Of a DNA stretch of 64,000 nucleotides, positions 3,701 through 57,540 are shown in pieces. The notes under the pieces were generated by a model. The model was not told the DNA's origin. It made no database searches and saw only the letters and a program-made list of their open reading frames with translations. The DNA lies in the NCBI RefSeq assembly GCF_053078305.1, contig NZ_CP166879.1, one strand, 5' to 3'. The first letter of the stretch is position 1, and each line of letters starts with the position of its first letter. A program made the translations under genes and the position numbers.

Positions 3701-4045
3701 CACCCGCAAGGGCGGGACTCGCACAACCTGAATAAATACATCTGGCGTTTTCTGGCCCGAAAAAACCAGTTGATCGCCAGTGTCGAAAATAGCTATGATT
3801 CCCGCGCACCTCATAAAACGGGTGCCGGGATTGGCGTCCTGGGCAAAACTGAAGCGCATAACACGCGCCCCGCGTGTTTTTTTGTGCCGCATAGTCACAC
3901 CTTATCAATGGTGGGCTGTACGGGGGCGGAGCAATCCGCGCCGGTTTCTTCAGTGTCCGGTTACGCCAACCCTGTACAGTCCGCCACCAGCGAAATTGGC
4001 GTTTCCGGTGGCGGTTATCTTAACCACACTGAGGAGGCTGCCAAC

Positions 4046-5218: not shown

Positions 5219-6624
5219 AACTGGCACCGAACGTAAAACGATTACCGAAAGATAAATACACCGAAGCGGTTATTTTTGCGGGTATTGATGCTCACTCATT
5301 CGCAGAGCATTACATCATTGCACAGGCCAAAAAAGCAGGCGATCCAGTCCCTCCCGTTTATCTGGGGCGTTATCAGTTAAGCGAACTGGATAACCTCCAG
5401 ATTGTTGATGATGGGCGATACAGGGCGACGGTGATACGCGCCGGAAATATTGAAGAGCCGCAGCTGTTAACCATCGCCACGAAACTGGCGAGCGCCGGAG
5501 TCCAGGAGGCGCGGCTACTTTCTGAAAATTTCGAATTGCTGGAGGAATGGAGCGACCAGCTTCCACGGCTTAGGGAGGCATGGGAACGCGGGGAAAGCCT
5601 GGTCATGAAAAAAATTCCCCAGCGAAAAACCACGCTACCGATGAGCGTTGGATCTACCGGATACGACACACAGCTTGATTACGTGGTAAAGGGGATTATT
5701 CCGGCATCGTCGCTTTGCAGCATATACGGGGCGAGCGGTTCCTATAAATCATTCCTTGCCGGATCGTGGGCGTGTCACGTTTCCACGGGCCGCCAGTGGG
5801 GAGGCCGCAGGGTGGCGCATGGCGCTGTTCTCTATGTGGTTGGTGAAGGCGGTATCGGCGTTCCGCGTCGTGTAAAAGCCTGGGAGGTTGTGCACGGTGA
5901 GCAGGTGAAAAATCTGTATCTGGTAAACCGTCCCATCTTTCCGGCTGTCCCGCTTGATGTTGATGAACTGGTTATTGCTGCCAGTCAGGTGGAGAGGGAA
6001 ACGGGTAAACCTGTTCGCATGATTATTCTGGACACGCTGGCGCGTTGCTTTGGCGGCAATGATGAAAATGACTCCCGCGACATGGGGGCATTTATCCGTG
6101 GTTGTGACGAGCTTAAACGGCGCACAGGGGCTACGGTGCTGGTGGTTCACCATTCCGGCAAGGATGAAACAAAGGGGGCGCGTGGTTCCAGTGCATTTCG
6201 TGCATCACTGGACGCTGAATACCGGATACGCAGGGAGGACGCAGGAAGCGAAGCGCTGGTTATCTCATGCACCAAAATGAAGGACGCGGAGGAACTCAAA
6301 GAGGCTGCCTATGATTTGCGGGTGGTGGAGCTTTTTACCGACGCTGACGGGGAGTTAATTACGTCGCTGGTGGTGGTGGATAAGCCGCGCCCTCCCGTTG
6401 AACTGGAGCGCATCGAGGAGGCAGGCAACAAGACGGAAAACCATACCGCGCTATGGGGGTGCATCCGTTCACGCACACAGAACGGCGACAAGTGCACGAT
6501 CCCGCTGTTACGTGACGATATGAAAAAGCTGGGGTATGACACAAAACACCTTAAACGATGGTTAGCCAAACTGGAAAAAGACGACGTGATCTACATTGAC
6601 GGTGATGATGTAGGACCACTGTAA
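5215..6624 (+). CDS. replication initiation protein, RecA-like ATPase (AAA_25/RepA-type) with C-terminal DNA-binding domain
   Basis: 469 aa; Walker A-like GASGSYKS, Walker B MIILD, LVVHHSGKD motif; iterons immediately downstream. Confidence 0.7.
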   Translation: MKLAPNVKRLPKDKYTEAVIFAGIDAHSFAEHYIIAQAKKAGDPVPPVYLGRYQLSELDNLQIVDDGRYRATVIRAGNIEEPQLLTIATKLASAGVQEARLLSENFELLEEWSDQLPRLREAWERGESLVMKKIPQRKTTLPMSVGSTGYDTQLDYVVKGIIPASSLCSIYGASGSYKSFLAGSWACHVSTGRQWGGRRVAHGAVLYVVGEGGIGVPRRVKAWEVVHGEQVKNLYLVNRPIFPAVPLDVDELVIAASQVERETGKPVRMIILDTLARCFGGNDENDSRDMGAFIRGCDELKRRTGATVLVVHHSGKDETKGARGSSAFRASLDAEYRIRREDAGSEALVISCTKMKDAEELKEAAYDLRVVELFTDADGELITSLVVVDKPRPPVELERIEEAGNKTENHTALWGCIRSRTQNGDKCTIPLLRDDMKKLGYDTKHLKRWLAKLEKDDVIYIDGDDVGPL

Positions 6625-6830
6625 AAAGTGGGCATTAAAAGTGGGAAAGGTGGGCGATTTAACGTAATTTTAACAAAATCACCCACTTTCCCACGTGTAT
6701 ATATCCCAAAAAGTGGGCACTAAAAAAATACCTATGAAACAAGATGATATAAATCCCAAACTTCCCACGTTGGACGAAGTGGGAAAACGTAAAAAGTGGG
6801 CGAAAAAAGTGGGTAGAGGTGGGCGAATGA
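6625..6830. repeat. iteron array, putative replication origin of the satellite
   Basis: About ten copies of AAGTGGG(C/A) / GGTGGGCGA in both orientations directly downstream of the rep gene. Confidence 0.7.
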
Positions 6831-7078
6831 CTCAAAAACACAGAGACAGAACAGAGCCAAAATATAAAGCGTTAGACATGACAGAGCACGCTTTAAAGGT
6901 GGCAATCAGGGTAATAGACCGCCACACGCGGGAAGGATACGCGAAGGAACATCCCGACCTGATAAGCGCATTCATGACCACAGCGGCGGCAAACTTTGCC
7001 ACGCTGACAGAACGGGAGATAGCCGAAGCGGAACAGGTAACAACCATCAACGTTAAAACCGGAGAGGTGGAATCATGA
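6827..7078 (+). CDS. hypothetical protein
   Basis: 83 aa from ATG at 6827 (upstream part of track ORF lies in the iterons). Confidence 0.45.
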   Translation: MTQKHRDRTEPKYKALDMTEHALKVAIRVIDRHTREGYAKEHPDLISAFMTTAAANFATLTEREIAEAEQVTTINVKTGEVES

Positions 7079-7485
7079 CAGCACAGATAGCCGCTTACGG
7101 GCGGCTGGTGGACGACCCGCAGGTAAAACAAACCAGCAAGGGCACACCGATGACGCTGGCGCGTATGGCGGTATCTCTGCCATGCAGCCAGGCACAGGAC
7201 GGGCAGGCTACGTTATGGCTATCAGTGATGGCATTTGGTAAGCAGGCCGACTTCCTGGCTAAACATCAAAAAGGCGATGTTGCCAGCGTATCCGGCACGA
7301 TGCAGGTAAGCCAGTGGACCAGACAGAACGGGGAAACGCGGCAGGGTTATCAGGTTATTGCAGACAGTGTAATCAGTGCCCGTGCTGCCCGTCCTGGCGG
7401 GAGCAGACGTACAACCACAGGCACACAGGGTAATCAGCCACCAGCGGGAGGCGATGACCCTTACGGTGACGGTATTCCGTTCTGA
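7075..7485 (+). CDS. ssb: single-stranded DNA-binding protein
   Basis: OB-fold pattern and acidic C-terminal tail DDPYGDGIPF typical of SSB. Confidence 0.75.
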   Translation: MTAQIAAYGRLVDDPQVKQTSKGTPMTLARMAVSLPCSQAQDGQATLWLSVMAFGKQADFLAKHQKGDVASVSGTMQVSQWTRQNGETRQGYQVIADSVISARAARPGGSRRTTTGTQGNQPPAGGDDPYGDGIPF

Positions 7486-7495
7486 GGGGGTGACG

Positions 7496-7768
7496 ATGGT
7501 ACATGACCGCATAGCGGAGGAACTCGAGGCAAAAGGCTTTTACCGGAGGGCGGCGGCGCGATGGGGTGAAGTTATGCAGCTGGTGGAGACAGACAAGGAA
7601 CGGCATCAGGTTACGATGCGACGGCTGGAATGTTCCAGGAAGGCACAGAGGCCACCGGAGCCGCCGGATAACTTCGGAGACCTGAAAAAAGCAGTAGATC
7701 GCACTTATGCCGAAATGGGTATGGATGGTGTAAGCGATGAAATATGGCGTAATTACCCAGACAGCTAA
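7496..7768 (+). CDS. PerC-family transcriptional regulator
   Basis: 90 aa; IAEELEAKGFYRRAAARW motif resembles PerC family. Confidence 0.5.
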   Translation: MVHDRIAEELEAKGFYRRAAARWGEVMQLVETDKERHQVTMRRLECSRKAQRPPEPPDNFGDLKKAVDRTYAEMGMDGVSDEIWRNYPDS

Positions 7769-51752: not shown

Positions 51753-53810
51753 ATGAATATTATGACGTCCAAATGGGTTCAACTATCATCAATGCCCGGA
51801 AACTTTACCGTTAAAGTTTCCGGTGGTACAGCGGCATTTCTTGAGGCTCCTTTTCCTCCGGCTGAAACGAAAGGAGGAATGACATTTGCTGACTGTCTCA
51901 TCAGTTTTAATACACAGGATTGCCTGTGGGTAAGGCCAGTATCCGGTGATCCGAACGTGGAAATTACCGGAGCGGGTATTGGTGCTGTCATTCCGTTAAG
52001 TGCTGATGTTGCCGGTACTACTGAACCGTCAGACTGGGATAATGCTGAAACACATACCCGTCCGGCAGGAAATGAAACGGCTTCCAGCTCCCCTTCCTGG
52101 TATTACGTGATTGTTATAGCCGGTCAGTCCAATGCTTCATCTTATGGTGAAGGGTTGCCCCTGCCGGATTCTTATGATCGTCCTGATCCACGTATTATGC
52201 AGCTGGCACGCAGGAATACACAAACCCCCGGAGGTATTCCCTGCAAATACAATGAAATCATTCCAGCAGATCACTGCCTTCATGATGTTCAGAATATGAG
52301 TCTGCTGAACCATCCAAAAGCAGACCTGAAAAAAGGGCAGTATGGTTGTGTGGGTCAGGGACTTCATATTGCGAAAAAAGTATTACCGGTGATTCCTGCT
52401 GATGCCGGGATTTTACTGGTTCCCTGTGCCCGTGGCGGCTCTGCTTTTACAACCGGCGCAGTTGGCTCATTCGATCCGGCAAGTGGTGCAGCCGAGGCGT
52501 CACTACGCTGGGGAGTGGATACCCCACTGTATCAGGATCTTGTCAGTCGAACGAAAGCGGCACTTGAGGCGAATCCAAAGAATGTGCTGTTATCTGTCGT
52601 ATGGATTCAGGGGGAAGGAGACCTTAAAGCGACCCCGGCCCAGCATGGTGCCCAGTTTACTGCGATGGTGAAAAAATTCCGTGCGGATCTTGGTGCTTTC
52701 TCCGGTCAGTGTATTGGTGGTTCATCAGACAGTGTGCCGTGGTTATGTGGTGACACAACCTATGACTGGAAAGAGAAGAACCCGGCGGCATATGAAACCA
52801 TTTATAGCGGATATAAAAACCGGGCTTCCGAGAACATTCACTTTGTTCCACTGATGCACGATGAGTTCGGTAATAAAACCGCGACCAACCTGCCGGAGCA
52901 CGACCCGGATATCGCTTCTGCCGGGTATTATGGTGCGGAATCACGGGGAGATGGCAACTGGACAACAGCATCCAGGGCAACCCATTTTAGCTCCTGGGCG
53001 CGCCGTTTTCTGGTCTCAGATCGTTTTGCATCAGCAATTCTTAAATATGCAGGTCTGACCTCTGCATTTATTGCCGGTGTGGCCCCTGATGGTGAAGCCC
53101 TGCCTCAGCCCGCGCCGGGTGGAAAACCGGAAGCTCCGACAGGTAGTCAGCCAGGAAGCAGTGAGTCCCCCCAGCCGACATCCCCGTCACTCCGTACGCT
53201 GCTTTCACTTAAAGCATCAGCAGGGGAAGCCCCGGCTCAGGGATGGAAAATTACAGATGGTACAATCCAGCTGACGGACGAAGGTAAAGCGCTGACCGTA
53301 TCCAAACAAAGCGGAAAAACCTGGTCACTTACCCATGCGACCAGTGCTGCCGGAGAGCTGTTGCAGCATGGTGGTCAGTTGACCTGTAAATTCCGTCTGT
53401 CAGGTGAAGTAAAAGAAGGCCAGTTTGCTCTGGGTATTTACCTCCACACCGATACGGTCCCGGAAGGTGTAACCATGAGTGGTACAGGCACACCGTTCCT
53501 GATGGCGTATTATCTCCAGACAACAGGCGGCCAGTTAAATCTGATGCACCATAAAACAGGGGGGAATACGAAACTGGGATCATTTGGAGCCTACAATAAC
53601 CAGTGGCATACACTTGTCCTGAAGTTTACGGCGGGAAGTGCCCAGGTAACGCCTGTGCTGGATGGCACTCCGGGCCAGGCATTCCAGATGGTGAAAGATG
53701 CACTTTCCCCTGCCAAAGATACGCTGACACTGACAGATGTCACCAAAGGGGCAACTTATGGCGTGTCTTTTGAGAGCGTTGTCCTTGAGGTTAATACCCC
53801 TGCGGCATAA
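51753..53810 (+). CDS. NanS-p-like sialate O-acetylesterase (SASA-type esterase with lectin-like C-terminal domain), tentative
   Basis: 685 aa; GQSNASSYGEG esterase motif; cargo position between gin and com/mom. Confidence 0.5.
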   Translation: MNIMTSKWVQLSSMPGNFTVKVSGGTAAFLEAPFPPAETKGGMTFADCLISFNTQDCLWVRPVSGDPNVEITGAGIGAVIPLSADVAGTTEPSDWDNAETHTRPAGNETASSSPSWYYVIVIAGQSNASSYGEGLPLPDSYDRPDPRIMQLARRNTQTPGGIPCKYNEIIPADHCLHDVQNMSLLNHPKADLKKGQYGCVGQGLHIAKKVLPVIPADAGILLVPCARGGSAFTTGAVGSFDPASGAAEASLRWGVDTPLYQDLVSRTKAALEANPKNVLLSVVWIQGEGDLKATPAQHGAQFTAMVKKFRADLGAFSGQCIGGSSDSVPWLCGDTTYDWKEKNPAAYETIYSGYKNRASENIHFVPLMHDEFGNKTATNLPEHDPDIASAGYYGAESRGDGNWTTASRATHFSSWARRFLVSDRFASAILKYAGLTSAFIAGVAPDGEALPQPAPGGKPEAPTGSQPGSSESPQPTSPSLRTLLSLKASAGEAPAQGWKITDGTIQLTDEGKALTVSKQSGKTWSLTHATSAAGELLQHGGQLTCKFRLSGEVKEGQFALGIYLHTDTVPEGVTMSGTGTPFLMAYYLQTTGGQLNLMHHKTGGNTKLGSFGAYNNQWHTLVLKFTAGSAQVTPVLDGTPGQAFQMVKDALSPAKDTLTLTDVTKGATYGVSFESVVLEVNTPAA

Positions 53811-54082
53811 TCGTGACGGCCGGGAATTTATCCGGCTGTAACATCAGTTAATAAGAGTGAGGCTTATATGACATATATAAACGTCTGCCTGCTGTATTTC
53901 TGCACGGTGGTTTGTTGTCTGTTGCTTGTCAGCGGTGGTTATAAAATTATTCGCAATTATTTTCGAAATAAAATTGATGCAGCTGCCGAGGAAAAGATAA
54001 AAAGCGGTGCTGTAATGCCGCAGCCGAAAGACTCCGGTCAGATTTAATTTTTTGTGAACCAGAAAAGGAAAGGAGAATATTC

Positions 54083-54328
54083 ATGCCAGAGATTAAAGGC
54101 ACGGTTACTGAAGAGCTTGTCAAACAGGCACTTTATTCTGAAGAAGTGAACCGCGTGCTGAAGGCGCAGGTTCGCAAGGATTTTGAGGCACAAATCGACG
54201 CATATGTTGATGAAGTGCTGGCCCGAATGGTTGGCCATTCTCCGGCTGAAAACAGCACGGAGAATGAGCCTCAGCCCGTAGAGCAACCAGAGCCGGTTCA
54301 GCCCGGAACTGACAGTGCCATGATGTAA
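54083..54328 (+). CDS. hypothetical protein
   Basis: 81 aa, AAGGAG RBS. Confidence 0.4.
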   Translation: MPEIKGTVTEELVKQALYSEEVNRVLKAQVRKDFEAQIDAYVDEVLARMVGHSPAENSTENEPQPVEQPEPVQPGTDSAMM

Positions 54329-54402
54329 CAATACAAACCGACAGCTTCTCCTGTCGGTTTGATTTTCATGGGCGATGTATATACCAGTCAGAGGAAATAA
54401 TC

Positions 54403-54603
54403 ATGGACAAGAACAAAAAGCAGCCCGATACCAAAGGTCTGGAAATATTAAGCGCAGAAATTATCAATGCGCTACGTTCAGGACTTGATGAAAATACATT
54501 ACAGGATCGAAACTTCACCACTGCAATGTGGATAGCGATGCAGATCCTGTGTACCCCAAGATGCGCTATTTTTGCGGTTCGTGAGGGTCAGTTGACTCGC
54601 TGA
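54403..54603 (+). CDS. hypothetical protein
   Basis: 66-aa ORF; competing antisense ORF 54566-54796. Confidence 0.3.
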   Translation: MDKNKKQPDTKGLEILSAEIINALRSGLDENTLQDRNFTTAMWIAMQILCTPRCAIFAVREGQLTR

Positions 54604-55258
54604 TTGCCCGAATTACATCAGAAAAGCACGCGTTCCATAATTGCATAGCTGATGAATCACCAGCTGTATGAAAAGAGGTAAAGACACAACTGGTGGATGT
54701 CATTGCTGCAATTGTGATATCAGCTGCAATTCGCGCAGCCTGTAACTTTTGGTCGGTGGTCAGTTTATCCATTTTCTCCTGCCTGAACAGATGCATCTCT
54801 GCTTTACAGGAGGCCGGGGAATATCATAGGATACACCACGAGCTCAGAGTGAAGCATTGATGCAGTTTTTTACAGATTGACCCAGAATAGTTCGCGCTAT
54901 CTGAGTCGCCATTTATGTAGTCCCGAAGTAAAGCATTGATGCAAACTTGTCTAAATCGGCCCAGCATAGTTCCAGCTATGCTGGGTTTCCCTTTTATGTA
55001 GTATCCTGTTGATTTGAAACATACTACATATACGCGCGATCCTACCTTCACTGGATAAAAAGTCAATAAAATGATCATTTTATGATCGTTTTCACCACCT
55101 AACTCTTCGTTTTCTTTAAGTAAATAATCACCGCCCTGAATCATTGTTGATGACTTTTCAATCTATTTGTTGTATCAATTAAACAAATCGAATCGATCGT
55201 TTTTGTCGATCGATTGCATGAGAAAGGCATCAACAACAAAGCAGGAGGTTATGCGGCC

Positions 55259-55459
55259 ATGTATCGAAACATACGGTGCCGACACTGCAATAAGCTACTG
55301 GCACGGGCCAGTTTCAGTTATCTGGAAGTAAAATGTCCGCGCTGTAAAACCCTCAATCAAATCACATCTCCGAGCGCCACAGAGCACCCCACATACACAA
55401 GGAAATCCTGTCGTGGGGAACAGAAAGCAAGTCACATCCCGTATCATCAGCACGCCTGA
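55259..55459 (+). CDS. com: Com zinc-finger translational activator of mom
   Basis: CRHCNKLL...CPRCK zinc finger; overlaps start of mom. Confidence 0.75.
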
Positions 55460-56150
55460 ACTTATTCGCTATAACGACAATATCGTTGGTTATGGTTCCC
55501 GTGAGTTGCGGGTTGAGACAATAAGTTGCTGGCTGGCCAGACTGGTTATCGTCAATAAACATTACAGCCACCGTTTCGTAAATAACTCCTACCTTCATCT
55601 GGGCATATTTTCAGAACGGGAACTTGTTGGCGTAATGCAATGGGGTTACGCCCTTAACCCAAACAGTGGTGCACGCGTCGTAACGGGTACGCAGAACCGA
55701 GAATATATGGAGCTGAACCGGCTATGGATGCATGACTGTATGCCGAGAAACTCCGAATCAAGGGCAATCAGTTACGCGCTCAAGCTAATCAGGCAGCTTT
55801 ATCCGCAGGTACAGTGGGTTCAGTCGTTTGCAGATGAGCGTTGTGGCTGTCTTGGTGTCGTGTATCAGGCAAGCAATTTTGATTATGTAGGCAGCCATGA
55901 AACAATATTCTATGAACTTGATGGCGAGTGGTATCACGAGATTTGCAGGAATGCCATTAAACGAGGCGGACAACGAGGTGAACATCTGAGGGCTAATATC
56001 GACAGAGCCAGTGTGCATAAGTTCCGACAGTTTCGTTACATCCGGTTTCTGAACAAGAGGGCCAGAAAACGCCTCAACACAAAGCTATTCAAAGTCCAGC
56101 CTTACCCAAAACCACAAACAGTTAAAACTGGTTTGAAAGAGAGTGAATGA
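55413..56150 (+). CDS. mom: DNA modification protein Mom
   Basis: 245 aa at extreme right end after com, as in Mu. Confidence 0.7.
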
Positions 56151-56277: not shown

Positions 56278-56391
56278 ATGCCGCTGACCACAGCATTTAA
56301 ACAGAATATTGAACGTATCCGGCGTGAACGCCTGCCAGAAGAACTGGCATATGCGCTGAAACAACAACTGAGGATTGCGATAAAACGATGA
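56278..56391 (+). pseudogene. Z: tail protein Z, downstream part resuming after Mu-like insertion
   Basis: [36 protein letters not shown] matches remembered lambda Z C-terminus. Confidence 0.8.
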
Positions 56392-56783
56392 AACATACTG
56401 ATATCCGTGCAGCCGTACTGGATGCACTGGAGAAGCATGACACCGGGGCGACGCTGTTTGATGGTCGCCCCGCTGTTTTTGAGGAGGCGGATTTTCCGGC
56501 GGTCGCGGTTTATCTGACGGATGCAGAGTATACCGGTGAAGAGCTGGATGCTGATACCTGGCGGGCCACACTGCATATTGAGGTGTTTTTACCGGCACAG
56601 GTACCGGATTCAGAGCTTGATCAGTGGATGGAAAGCCGGATTTACCCGGCGATGGCGGCGATCCCTGCACTGGCAGGCATGATTACCACGATGGTTACGC
56701 AGGGCTATGAGTATCGTCGTGATGACGATATGGCATTGTGGAGCTCTGCAGATCTGACTTATTCCATTACATACGAGATGTGA
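56388..56783 (+). CDS. U: tail terminator protein U
   Basis: 131 aa; near-identical to remembered lambda U. Confidence 0.9.
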
Positions 56784-56790
56784 GGATGAT

Positions 56791-57540
56791 ATGGCAACAC
56801 CAAATCCCCTGGCGCCGGTAAAAGGTTCCGGCACCACGCTCTGGGTTTACACCGGTAAGGGCGATGCTTATGCAAACCCGCTGTCAGATGATGAGTGGAC
56901 GCGTCTGGCAAAAATAAAGGATCTGACCCCCGGCGAGATGACGGCGGAATCCTACGACGATAACTATCTGGATGATGAGGATGCTGACTGGGTATCCACC
57001 GGGCAGGGGCAGAAATCTGCCGGTGACACCAGTTTTACGCTGGCCTGGAAGCCCGGCGAGAAAGGGCAGCGTGATTTGATTGCCTGGTTTGACAGCAGTG
57101 AGACCCGGGCCTACAAAATCCGCTTCCCGAACGGTACGGTGGATGTGTTCCGTGGCTGGGTGAGCGCCATTGGTAAAGCGGTGACTGCCAAAGAAGTGAT
57201 TACCCGTACGGTAAAAATCACCAATATTGGTCGTCCGTCGCTGGCGGAGGATCGGGGAGAAATCACACCGGTCACCGGTATTACCGTGACGCCACTAACG
57301 GGGAATGTGGCAAAAGGTCAGAGCACCACCCTGACTGTGGCCGTTCAGCCGGAAGGCGCAACGGATAAAACATTCCGCGCAACGTCGGCAAATCAGAATT
57401 TCGCCACCATTACCGTGAAAGGGAACACGATCACCGTGAAAGGTGTTGCGGCAGGTAAAGCGCAGATCCCTGTTGTCACCGGCAACGGTGAGTTTGCGGC
57501 GGTGGCGGAGATCACCGTTACGGATGGCGCTGCGGGCTGA
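56791..57540 (+). CDS. V: major tail protein V
   Basis: 249 aa with C-terminal Ig-like domain; matches remembered lambda V. Confidence 0.9.

Follow-up and report, generated by a model that had tools for sequence, protein, structure and literature searches.

A stretch of 64,000 nucleotides from contig NZ_CP166879.1 (assembly GCF_053078305.1), referred to below as the window, carries two diverged hairpin-bearing repeat units upstream of the com and mom genes of a Mu-like prophage, which is of the Sp18 type and corresponds, in strain Sakai (O157:H7), to prophage Sp18. These units are a true tandem duplication of a hairpin module of approximately 79 bp, beyond what chance would yield, and they lie in a conserved, non-coding and strongly structured segment that extends over approximately 54790-55035. 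The function that is favoured here, tentatively and as something short of probable, is that the units are modules of a structured leader at the 5' end of a leftward transcript of cargo ("moron") type, which would feed interchangeable small open reading frames (ORFs). The two units are composed as follows:

54845-54923, unit 1, the nearest to the leftward ORF: the 16-mer GTGAAGCATTGATGCA at 54849-54864, a variable linker, a hairpin, and the tail CCATTTATGTAGT at 54909-54921
54881-54905, hairpin of unit 1, with the weakened stem CCCAGAATAG/CTATCTGAG
54924-55004, unit 2: the 16-mer GTAAAGCATTGATGCA at 54928-54943, a variable linker, a hairpin, and the tail CCTTTTATGTAGT at 54990-55002
54960-54969 / 54976-54985, hairpin of unit 2: the perfect 10-bp inverted repeat CCCAGCATAG/CTATGCTGGG, followed by TTTCCCTTTT

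The repeat search returned a 53-nt direct repeat of 75% identity with a spacing of 79 (54848-54900 / 54927-54979), together with a second repeated block, CCwTTTATGTAGT, of 92% identity with a spacing of 81 (54909-54921 / 54990-55002), and when 54841-54923 is aligned with 54920-55004, 56 of the 85 columns are identical. Tandem Repeats Finder (TRF) made no call on the units, the divergence between the copies being too great. A covariance model derived from the single units of relatives recognised unit 2 with 125.5 bits (54926-55033) and unit 1 with 55.3 bits (54847-54920), and found nothing else significant over the 64-kb window, in which the motif ATAG-N6-CTAT is present at two places only, both within the units. 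A first-pass annotation, made from the letters alone, had reported two diverged direct repeats, each with a hairpin, and this is borne out by the repeat search, the alignment, the covariance model and a polymorphism of one or two units at this exact place; the 10-bp inverted repeat and T-rich run that it noted in the second unit are also present, and are called terminator-like by the scan. Two features were absent from its list, namely a third copy of the 16-mer, inverted, at 54792-54807, and an additional hairpin (54995-55004 / 55021-55030), in which the tail of unit 2 serves as the left arm. Beyond the two units and the inverted 16-mer at 54792-54807, no further copies of the unit or of the 16-mer were found in the window or the prophage.

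The number of units varies among phages that are otherwise nearly identical. A survey of 5,426 complete E. coli genomes gave 215 records holding the element, from 213 genomes, and approximately 207 of these records have one unit (a span of 117-119 bp, Sakai included), the other 8 having two. When seven copies, taken from a phage record and several E. coli genomes, are aligned, one or two units stand at the identical place between near-identical flanks. The one-unit locus of Sakai lies at NC_002695.2 5078300-5078700, and STEC2018-607 (NZ_CP075697.1, around 2934600-2935250) has two units. An intrinsic two-part design is not supported, one unit being the common state. The element occupies a median of one place per genome, always within a Mu-like prophage, and there are two units only in the window, which rules out a dispersed intergenic repeat of the repetitive extragenic palindromic (REP), enterobacterial repetitive intergenic consensus (ERIC) or miniature inverted-repeat transposable element (MITE) type. 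The 5' half of the unit (linker types A, B and C) and the 3' half (hairpin types x, y and z) reassort between phages.

The element is also found in three more distant phages, of which one (L033) has one unit and two (L034 and L135) have two units each; the Mom proteins of L033 and L034 are 80-83% identical to that of the window. The junction between the units of L034 and L135 (...GTAGTACAGCATTGATGCG) differs from that of the window (...GTAGTCCCGAAGTAAAGC), and therefore the duplication arose at least twice and persisted. In all three of the two-unit types, the unit proximal to the ORF has the weaker hairpin. The comparison with other copies of this cargo region, which had been suggested in the first-pass annotation, thus revealed both the polymorphism in copy number and the structure-preserving variation described below.

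The element is narrow in distribution and does not extend beyond this phage lineage. None of the complete E. coli genomes has the L034 or the L135 type, and neither BLAST nor the covariance model detected a unit in 54 other Mom-encoding loci (260 kb). Relatives that carry other cargo (L013 and L020) have com-mom without any such unit, and phage Mu itself gave no DNA match to the region in the phage collection, the distant mode included. Two pattern scans of genome contigs had 0 matches, the second having a fixed 30-nt gap that would miss the E. coli type, a loose pattern applied to viral contigs gave mostly chance matches, and a scan of metagenomes recovered E. coli-type copies only. One contig of IMG/VR (2703718800_000013, L010 / L139) has the letters "NN" exactly between the CCCAG of unit 1 and the CCCAG of unit 2; the repeat seemingly caused a gap or collapse in scaffolding, and short-read assemblies may under-report the two-unit forms.

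Only one gene call covers the units:

54824-55144, minus strand: a spurious ORF of 106 amino acids overlying the units, a gene call of the ECs_4996 / phrog_26524 type

The first-pass annotation considered this ORF dubious, and rightly so. A search of 5.8 billion proteins returned 32 matches, all of them E. coli or phage calls with 63-100% identity across the invariant N-terminal part, and the relatives of the ORF range from 65 to 154 amino acids, sharing the approximately 50 N-terminal residues that derive from invariant DNA, after which the frame and the C-terminus diverge. The form of 135 amino acids reads the neighbouring zinc-ribbon gene out of frame, and the Sakai form of 154 amino acids (ECs_4996) is fused to that gene in frame. 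In L033, L034 and L135 the ORF is broken, the lengths of the unit alleles (68, 69, 75 and 77 nt) differ by numbers that are not multiples of 3, and in many genomes the Prokaryotic Genome Annotation Pipeline (PGAP) flags this ORF as either frameshifted or incomplete. Pfam has no family for the 106-aa ORF, its PHROG match (phrog_26524) is the same gene call, and no intact longer protein was found outside near-identical DNA. This ORF is rejected as a protein-coding gene, given that frame, length and termini are not conserved and that there are no homologues beyond near-identical DNA; the conserved expressed protein that would have spoken against the first-pass reading was looked for, and these comparisons revealed none.

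The segment is conserved as well as structured. Between L002, a Mu-like phage inside an Stx1a phage (LC727895; Stx, Shiga toxin), and L033, identity is 75% in the non-coding leader, 61% in the zinc-ribbon ORF just downstream and 72% in com. RNA folding, proposed as a check by the first-pass annotation, gives z-scores of -3.3 to -5.5 relative to shuffled sequence, on either strand, and three stem-loops (SL-A, SL-B and SL-C) recur in all the lineages:

54792-54807, left arm of SL-A: TGCATCTCTGCTTTAC, the inverted copy of the 16-mer, which abuts the ribosome-binding region of the leftward ORF (inverted-repeat and 16-mer search)
One in each unit, SL-B, the unit hairpin, with the stems CCCAGCATAG/CTATGCTGGG; CCCAGAATAG/CTAT-CTGGG; GGTCCAGATAG/CTATCTGGACC; CCCGGTAG/CTACCGGG; and CCCCCCATAG/CTATGCGGGGG
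54995-55030, SL-C: the hairpin TATGTAGTAT ... ATACTACATA, an inverted repeat that folds; the tail of unit 2 forms its left arm

In SL-B, the TAG-loop-CTA top is constant, and at least five different stem sequences are found below it, with the changes falling on both arms; all 12 of the unit instances fold as this hairpin, with stems of 8-13 bp and energies of -14 to -25 kcal/mol. SL-A is formed by the pairing of the 16-mer with 54792-54807 around an apical palindrome, TATC-ATAG-GATA (54822-54833), and 83-85% of the cells are paired in this register, versus 26-50% for partners that were slid. Five pairs of SL-A are changed on both sides, a count reached by 5-6 of 500 shuffles. In L034, both arms of SL-A are changed jointly (GCATCACTG / CAGTGATGC) with an improvement in the pairing, and the apical stem is a perfect 11 bp, compared with 7 of 11 in the E. 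coli types, two internal mismatches of the latter having become pairs. The arms of SL-C are conserved in L033, L034 and L135, and the loops differ.

The Rfam search, also suggested at the first pass, gave no match: in Rfam 15, nothing exceeded 20 bits over 54300-55500, the only matches in the whole window being isrK and C4 at 3.8-4.0 kb, and the best result for the four relatives L002, L033, L034 and L135 was rpfG, with 27.9 bits against a gathering score of 75.9. A scan for tRNA and tmRNA found none. No match of at least 13 nt, direct or inverted, links 54785-55070 to the rest of the window, and 11-12-mers occur at the level of chance. A trans-acting small RNA with a target in the window was rejected, given that no complementarity beyond chance was detected.

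Two promoter-like sites, predicted as matches to a sigma-70-like consensus, face each other across the units, and a palindrome adjoins one of them:

54803-54832, plus strand: rightward promoter-like site, TTTACA-18-TAGGAT, which overlaps the SL-A arm and the apical palindrome at 54822-54833
55066-55039, minus strand: leftward promoter-like site, TTGACT-16-TAGGAT, with a predicted start at approximately 55032, at the base of SL-C
55068-55081: AAAATGATCATTTT, a perfect palindrome centred on GATC and lying shortly upstream of the leftward -35 (inverted-repeat search)

The scan of the window region gave these two facing sites and one unrelated site at 54612-54641, and in the same four relatives, scanned over 450-510 bp, it returned these two sites and no others. 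At the rightward site, 15 distinct E. coli-type sequences as well as L033, L034 and L135 have invariant hexamers, with a spacer that varies; the hexamers lie inside the SL-A arm and the apical palindrome, and therefore their conservation is ambiguous. The leftward site is the stronger case of the two as a predicted promoter. In L002 and L033, it reads TTGACT-16-TAGGAT/TAAGAT, with spacing and distance from SL-C unchanged, and in L034 and L135 it reads TTGACG-16-TATAAT (11/12), though the DNA to the right of SL-C is unrelated there to the E. coli type. The 16-nt spacer is constant in the four lineages, and the distance from TTGAC to SL-C is 32 nt in the E. coli types and 30 nt in L034 and L135. 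Given this conserved, structured, non-coding DNA with conserved promoter-like sites on its flanks, the phrase "regulatory or small RNA locus", used at the first pass, is a fair description. The palindrome AAAATGATCATTTT may serve the module as an operator or as a Dam-sensitive site; a second GATC is present at 55084-55087, and TRF makes a call of period 11 at 55071-55092.

The sequences on the left side of the segment place it within a leftward cassette:

54566-54772, minus strand: small cargo ORF of 68 amino acids (MDKLTTDQK...), with its ATG at 54772 and AGGAG a few bases upstream
54334-54361, called on both strands: bidirectional terminator-like hairpin after the DUF826 gene, found by the scan

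The same leader is joined, to the left of approximately 54790, to three unrelated leftward ORFs, namely the 68-aa ORF of the window, the zinc-ribbon ORF and, in L135, an ORF of 101 amino acids, each of the three types having a Shine-Dalgarno sequence (AGGAG, AAGGAG or GAGG) before its ATG. The ORF of the window and the zinc-ribbon ORF both look coding, to judge from their substitutions: the former has 3/5/13 changes at codon positions 1/2/3 relative to its relatives, and in the latter the two CxxC pairs are kept between L002 and L033, with approximately half of the residues differing. The 68-aa ORF has a weak match to phrog_25148 (E = 1.3e-4). The hairpin at 54334-54361 is likely to be the 3' limit of a leftward transcript, and an analogous hairpin follows DUF826 in the relatives of the zinc-ribbon type. 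Where relatives carry another leftward cargo, the sequence that they have in common with the window begins only at approximately 55162, just before a GATC hairpin that lies upstream of com, and runs rightwards. The promoter-like site, leader, ORF and terminator-like hairpin, with the junction of leader and ORF at approximately 54790 and the right edge at approximately 55162, therefore place the units inside a leftward cassette, inserted between com-mom and the cargo genes on the invertase side, and not in the control region of com-mom. Whereas the first-pass annotation had put the locus at the cargo boundary, it is thus found within the leftward cargo module (right edge at approximately 55162), directly 5' of a coding-looking ORF. 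This ORF and the plus-strand ORF at 54403-54603 are convergent, and their 3' ends overlap by approximately 38 bp; both have a third-position bias (3/1/10 in the plus-strand ORF, besides the 3/5/13 given above), and PGAP annotates the plus-strand ORF alone.

In the reading that is favoured here, we infer a functional RNA of the minus strand, a leftward promoter that fires and a role of the segment as a leader. RNA polymerase would start at TTGACT-16-TAGGAT (55066-55039) and produce an mRNA with a long 5' leader, of approximately 260 nt in the window and approximately 180 nt in the usual one-unit form, and this leader would influence, in cis, how stable the mRNA is and how it is translated. Its order would be SL-C at the 5' terminus (55030-54995), then one SL-B for each unit, and finally the long imperfect SL-A, in which the 5' arm would be the 16-mer of a unit and the 3' arm (54807-54792) would end a few bases before the Shine-Dalgarno sequence of the ORF that starts at 54772. 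SL-C may protect the mRNA from decay that depends on the 5' end, SL-A may set the access to the start region of the ORF, and the duplication would add a second SL-B as well as a second, better-matching copy of the SL-A arm; the predicted minimum-free-energy fold of the window pairs this distal, better-matching copy of the 16-mer.

Several observations weigh against this reading. Formal covariation is limited, given that RNAalifold supports 2 compensatory pairs in SL-B/SL-C and that only four lineages are available. Because each of the stems is an inverted repeat, the same pairs form on both strands, and SL-A, paired at 85.4% on the minus strand versus 82.9% on the plus strand, gives the former a slight edge only; the weakened hairpins proximal to the ORF are repaired by G.U pairs on the minus strand. 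A hand count of G.U versus A.C mismatches gave approximately 6 cases in favour of the minus strand and 2 in favour of the plus strand, which is not significant, the x-type alleles pointing the opposite way; the SL-B of these alleles is also 5-12 kcal/mol more stable on the plus strand. The two or three promoter-like sites per scanned region compare with 1.1-2.5 expected by chance, and the conserved rightward site, together with the plus-strand T-rich tail, would fit a rightward RNA equally well. The literature search found no mention of ECs4995-4998 and no transcript evidence for the units, and the supplement of the Hfq-crosslinking study of Sakai lists only EcOnc37 in Sp18, approximately 1 kb to the left of the units. 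EcOnc37 is placed at 5077340-5077410 (minus strand) in the coordinates of the older Sakai record (L218 approximately 2476-2674; NC_002695 near 5077340-5077540), a position that coincides with the 3' end of the DUF6645 gene or follows it; the window has a shorter intergenic gap at the corresponding place (53811-53867) than Sakai, so EcOnc37 may not be present in the window.

In a rather unlikely alternative, a small or cis-antisense RNA would be transcribed rightwards from the site at 54803-54832, starting at approximately 54840 and stopping at the unit hairpin and its T-rich tail. This RNA would begin with the 16-mer and the variable linker, its length would be approximately 80 nt where there is one unit and approximately 155 nt in the window, and it would be fully complementary to the leftward leader, with which it can coexist, exerting its control by antisense pairing or by the collision of convergent polymerases. 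The invariance of the hexamers beside a varying spacer speaks for it, but both are part of the SL-A arm and its apical palindrome, where their conservation may be structural, and the match itself is weak (9/12, with an 18-nt spacer). The hairpin and T-rich tail do point rightwards, unit 2 of the window is called terminator-like and the x-type SL-B is more stable on the plus strand, whereas most alleles have a poor T tract after the stem (0.6-1.7) and are called terminators weakly or not at all. The drift of linker and stem with the pairing kept is what a cis-antisense pair would allow; against this stand the lack of any Hfq-bound RNA listed at the units in the Sakai supplement and of complementarity beyond chance elsewhere in the window. 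A more elaborate proposal, and an improbable one, is that the units serve as the module through which the RNAs of an allele-specific cis-antisense switch interact, two facing promoters giving RNAs that overlap in full, with the hypervariable hairpin and linker alleles (the y, x, z, L033 and L135 types) as specificity groups; the outcome would set the expression of the cargo gene and perhaps read-through into com-mom. If this were true, transposable phages would possess a portable, RNA-controlled expression socket for cargo genes, which has not been described for Mu-like phages.

The same hairpins could, with still less probability, be plus-strand intrinsic terminators that insulate com-mom from read-through of the invertase and cargo genes, the duplication providing two in series. 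In phage Mu, the host is harmed by Mom that escapes regulation, the GC-rich stem of 10-13 bp is followed on the plus strand by TTTCCCTTTT upstream of com, and a hairpin kept through compensatory changes is what would be expected if only its shape mattered. The T tract, however, is interrupted in all the alleles and poor in most of them, as can be seen from the tails TTTCCCTTTT, TCGCCCTTTA, TCTCCCTTTA and CGTCCCTTTT, and its score of 3.0 in the window allele falls to 0.6-1.7 in the others: the common x allele (L002), L033 and L034 are not called, and L135 has a weak 5-pair call only. The terminator-like look reported at the first pass thus holds for unit 2 of the window, and not as a general feature of the element. 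A good bidirectional terminator after DUF826 already meets the rightward transcription of the cargo, with a convergent ORF in between, L013 and L020 have com-mom without the unit, and the conserved 16-mer, SL-A, SL-C and the leftward promoter would be left unexplained. Very unlikely, too, is a control site at the level of the DNA, in which the 16-mer (one inverted copy plus one or two direct copies) and the palindromes would act as operators for a phage or host regulator of the facing promoters. The 16-mer is nearly invariant among the E. coli alleles beside neighbours that vary, its arms bracket the rightward promoter-like site, and the perfect GATC-centred palindrome adjoins the leftward -35, but the joint change of the arms in L034, with better pairing, fits base pairing more than the recognition of a fixed sequence, and the SL-B stems vary freely with compensation. 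No other 16-mer or ATAG-N6-CTAT is present in the prophage, so this is not a common site of a late-promoter activator. A dyad for a late activator of the Mu type (C or Mor) was rejected: ATAG-N6-CTAT is restricted to the two units, and TTAT-N6-ATAA is absent from the window. It is equally doubtful that the units are a functionless, decaying remnant, either a duplicated piece of a dead gene of the ECs_4996 type or a recombination scar between cargo modules. The frameshifted or incomplete marks of PGAP, the frequent recombination that is indicated by variable copy number and mosaic alleles, and the weakened ORF-proximal hairpin of all three two-unit types would agree with decay, in opposition to a segment that is more conserved than the neighbouring coding DNA, in which hairpins are maintained by changes on both arms and promoter hexamers and spacings are kept amid unrelated flanks, and for which no intact longer protein is known outside near-identical DNA.

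As a putative structured leader and/or cis-antisense RNA of a phage cargo cassette, the element is of a kind already known, and it is not described as a family. Morons, as defined by Hendrix and colleagues, are autonomous cassettes of promoter, gene and terminator that are inserted between phage genes, and the cassette of the units resembles them in its small, opposite-oriented ORF, its own promoter-like site and its terminator-like hairpin, and in being present, absent or replaced among near-identical phages. It differs in the unusually long, conserved and structured leader common to three unrelated ORFs, given that leader and promoter-like site are conserved, and not the gene. The 5' untranslated region (UTR) of ompA stabilises its mRNA by means of a 5'-terminal stem-loop, and SL-C is similarly predicted to lie within a few nucleotides of the predicted leftward 5' end in four lineages; there is no relationship in sequence, however, the 5' end here is a predicted one, and the leader has two or three further conserved hairpins.

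In the hok/sok system of plasmid R1 and the par system (RNA I / RNA II) of pAD1, control is exerted by cis-antisense RNAs, and in the latter convergent transcripts overlap at direct repeats. The units are likewise bracketed by two conserved, facing promoter-like sites, whose RNAs would overlap there in full, and their hairpins are variable in sequence and constant in shape; unlike these systems, the locus has no toxin-like ORF, its antisense promoter is weak and a single unit is the usual form. A type I toxin-antitoxin locus was rejected, the leftward ORFs having a maximum 19-aa hydropathy of 0.08-1.23, with no segment of the membrane type, and being mutually unrelated. In comparison with Rho-independent terminators, the GC-rich stem of 8-13 bp, the loop of 4-6 nt and the plus-strand T-rich tail are alike, and unit 2 of the window passes the scan, whereas the T tract is broken by CCC or CGCCC, the other alleles are mostly not called, and the units are not located at the 3' end of a plus-strand gene.

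The mom operon of phage Mu is regulated through Dam/OxyR GATC sites, a site for the C protein and the divergent promoter momP2. The locus of the units is comparable in its position upstream of com-mom, with clusters of GATC (55072-55087 and 55193-55212) and a leftward promoter-like site, and differs in that the units are 260-410 bp upstream of com, outside the common com-mom stretch that begins at approximately 55162, with no TTAT-N6-ATAA and no DNA match to Mu. The ToxI-type RNAs of type III toxin-antitoxin systems consist of repeats of approximately 36 nt and are associated with nucleases of the ToxN type. Both cases present tandem non-coding repeats between a promoter and a downstream ORF, but the units here are of 79-81 nt and usually single, and the downstream ORFs (53-101 amino acids) are mutually unrelated and have no Pfam or PHROG matches of the ToxN type.

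If the leader reading is true, Sp18-type prophages would carry a conserved socket of promoter and leader in which small genes are swapped, and an unannotated structured RNA would be added to O157:H7 Sakai, a well-studied pathogen. Of the complete E. coli genomes, approximately 4% have Sp18-type prophages with the element, and many of these strains produce Shiga toxin. The ECs_4996 gene and the pseudogenes annotated as "frameshifted hypothetical protein" would represent a recurrent mis-annotation over non-coding DNA, fused to a real zinc-ribbon gene. The phages would also provide a natural series (0, 1 or 2 units, with several hairpin alleles) for the control by a leader of a cargo gene beside the toxic mom operon. 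Given the narrow distribution and the putative function, the value of the element is local rather than general.

The surroundings of the units can be read from an identical stretch of E. coli STEC2018-607, where the annotated order runs from baseplate and tail-fibre genes to a Gin-type recombinase, DUF6645, DUF1378 and DUF826, and then through a small hypothetical protein (54403-54603 of the window) and a "frameshifted" minus-strand pseudogene to Com, Mom and disrupted host DNA. This annotation supplies the coordinates of the two genes to the right:

55259-55459: com
55413-56150: mom

The Stx-phage records LC727881 and LC727895 label the same DNA as a "region of the inserted Bacteriophage Mu-like phage". 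The right end of the prophage is at 56278/56279 (...ATCGCCGCGCTATA), the point at which seven independent insertions diverge, and to the right of 56278 there is a lambda-type tail gene cluster (U at 56388-56783 and V at 56791-57540); the Mu-like phage therefore sits within another prophage, as in LC727881 and LC727895. The opposite, left boundary of the Mu-like prophage did not emerge from a simple inverted-repeat search.

Among the rightward cargo genes, the main one (51753-53810) encodes a DUF6645 protein of 685 amino acids, and is followed by the DUF1378 and DUF826 genes. This trio, which is also found downstream of stx in Stx phages, is placed in the window between the invertase and the com-mom genes of the Mu-like phage. 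Far from the units, isrK (66 bits, 3806-3882, plus strand) adjoins the C4 antisense RNA (77.6 bits, 3904-3991, plus strand), both above the Rfam gathering score, and the pair is presumably part of the immunity/antirepressor region of the other prophage of the window, which would be lambdoid or P22-like.

In L002, a protein of 350 amino acids (6492-7544) follows com in the place of Mom and looks like a DNA cytosine methyltransferase, and thus the modification gene has been exchanged behind the same com and upstream region. Immediately before com, a hairpin with a perfect 9-bp stem that includes GATC, AATCGATCG-N7-CGATCGATT (55191-55215), lies approximately 45 bp from the ATG; this GATC cluster, which is conserved in L033-L036, is much closer to com than are the Dam/OxyR sites of phage Mu. 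A 23-nt inverted repeat (55135-55157 / 55223-55245), which is 78% complementary, would pair a far-upstream segment with the Shine-Dalgarno region of com (AAAGCAGGAGG), and this pairing may possibly contribute to a translational control of com.

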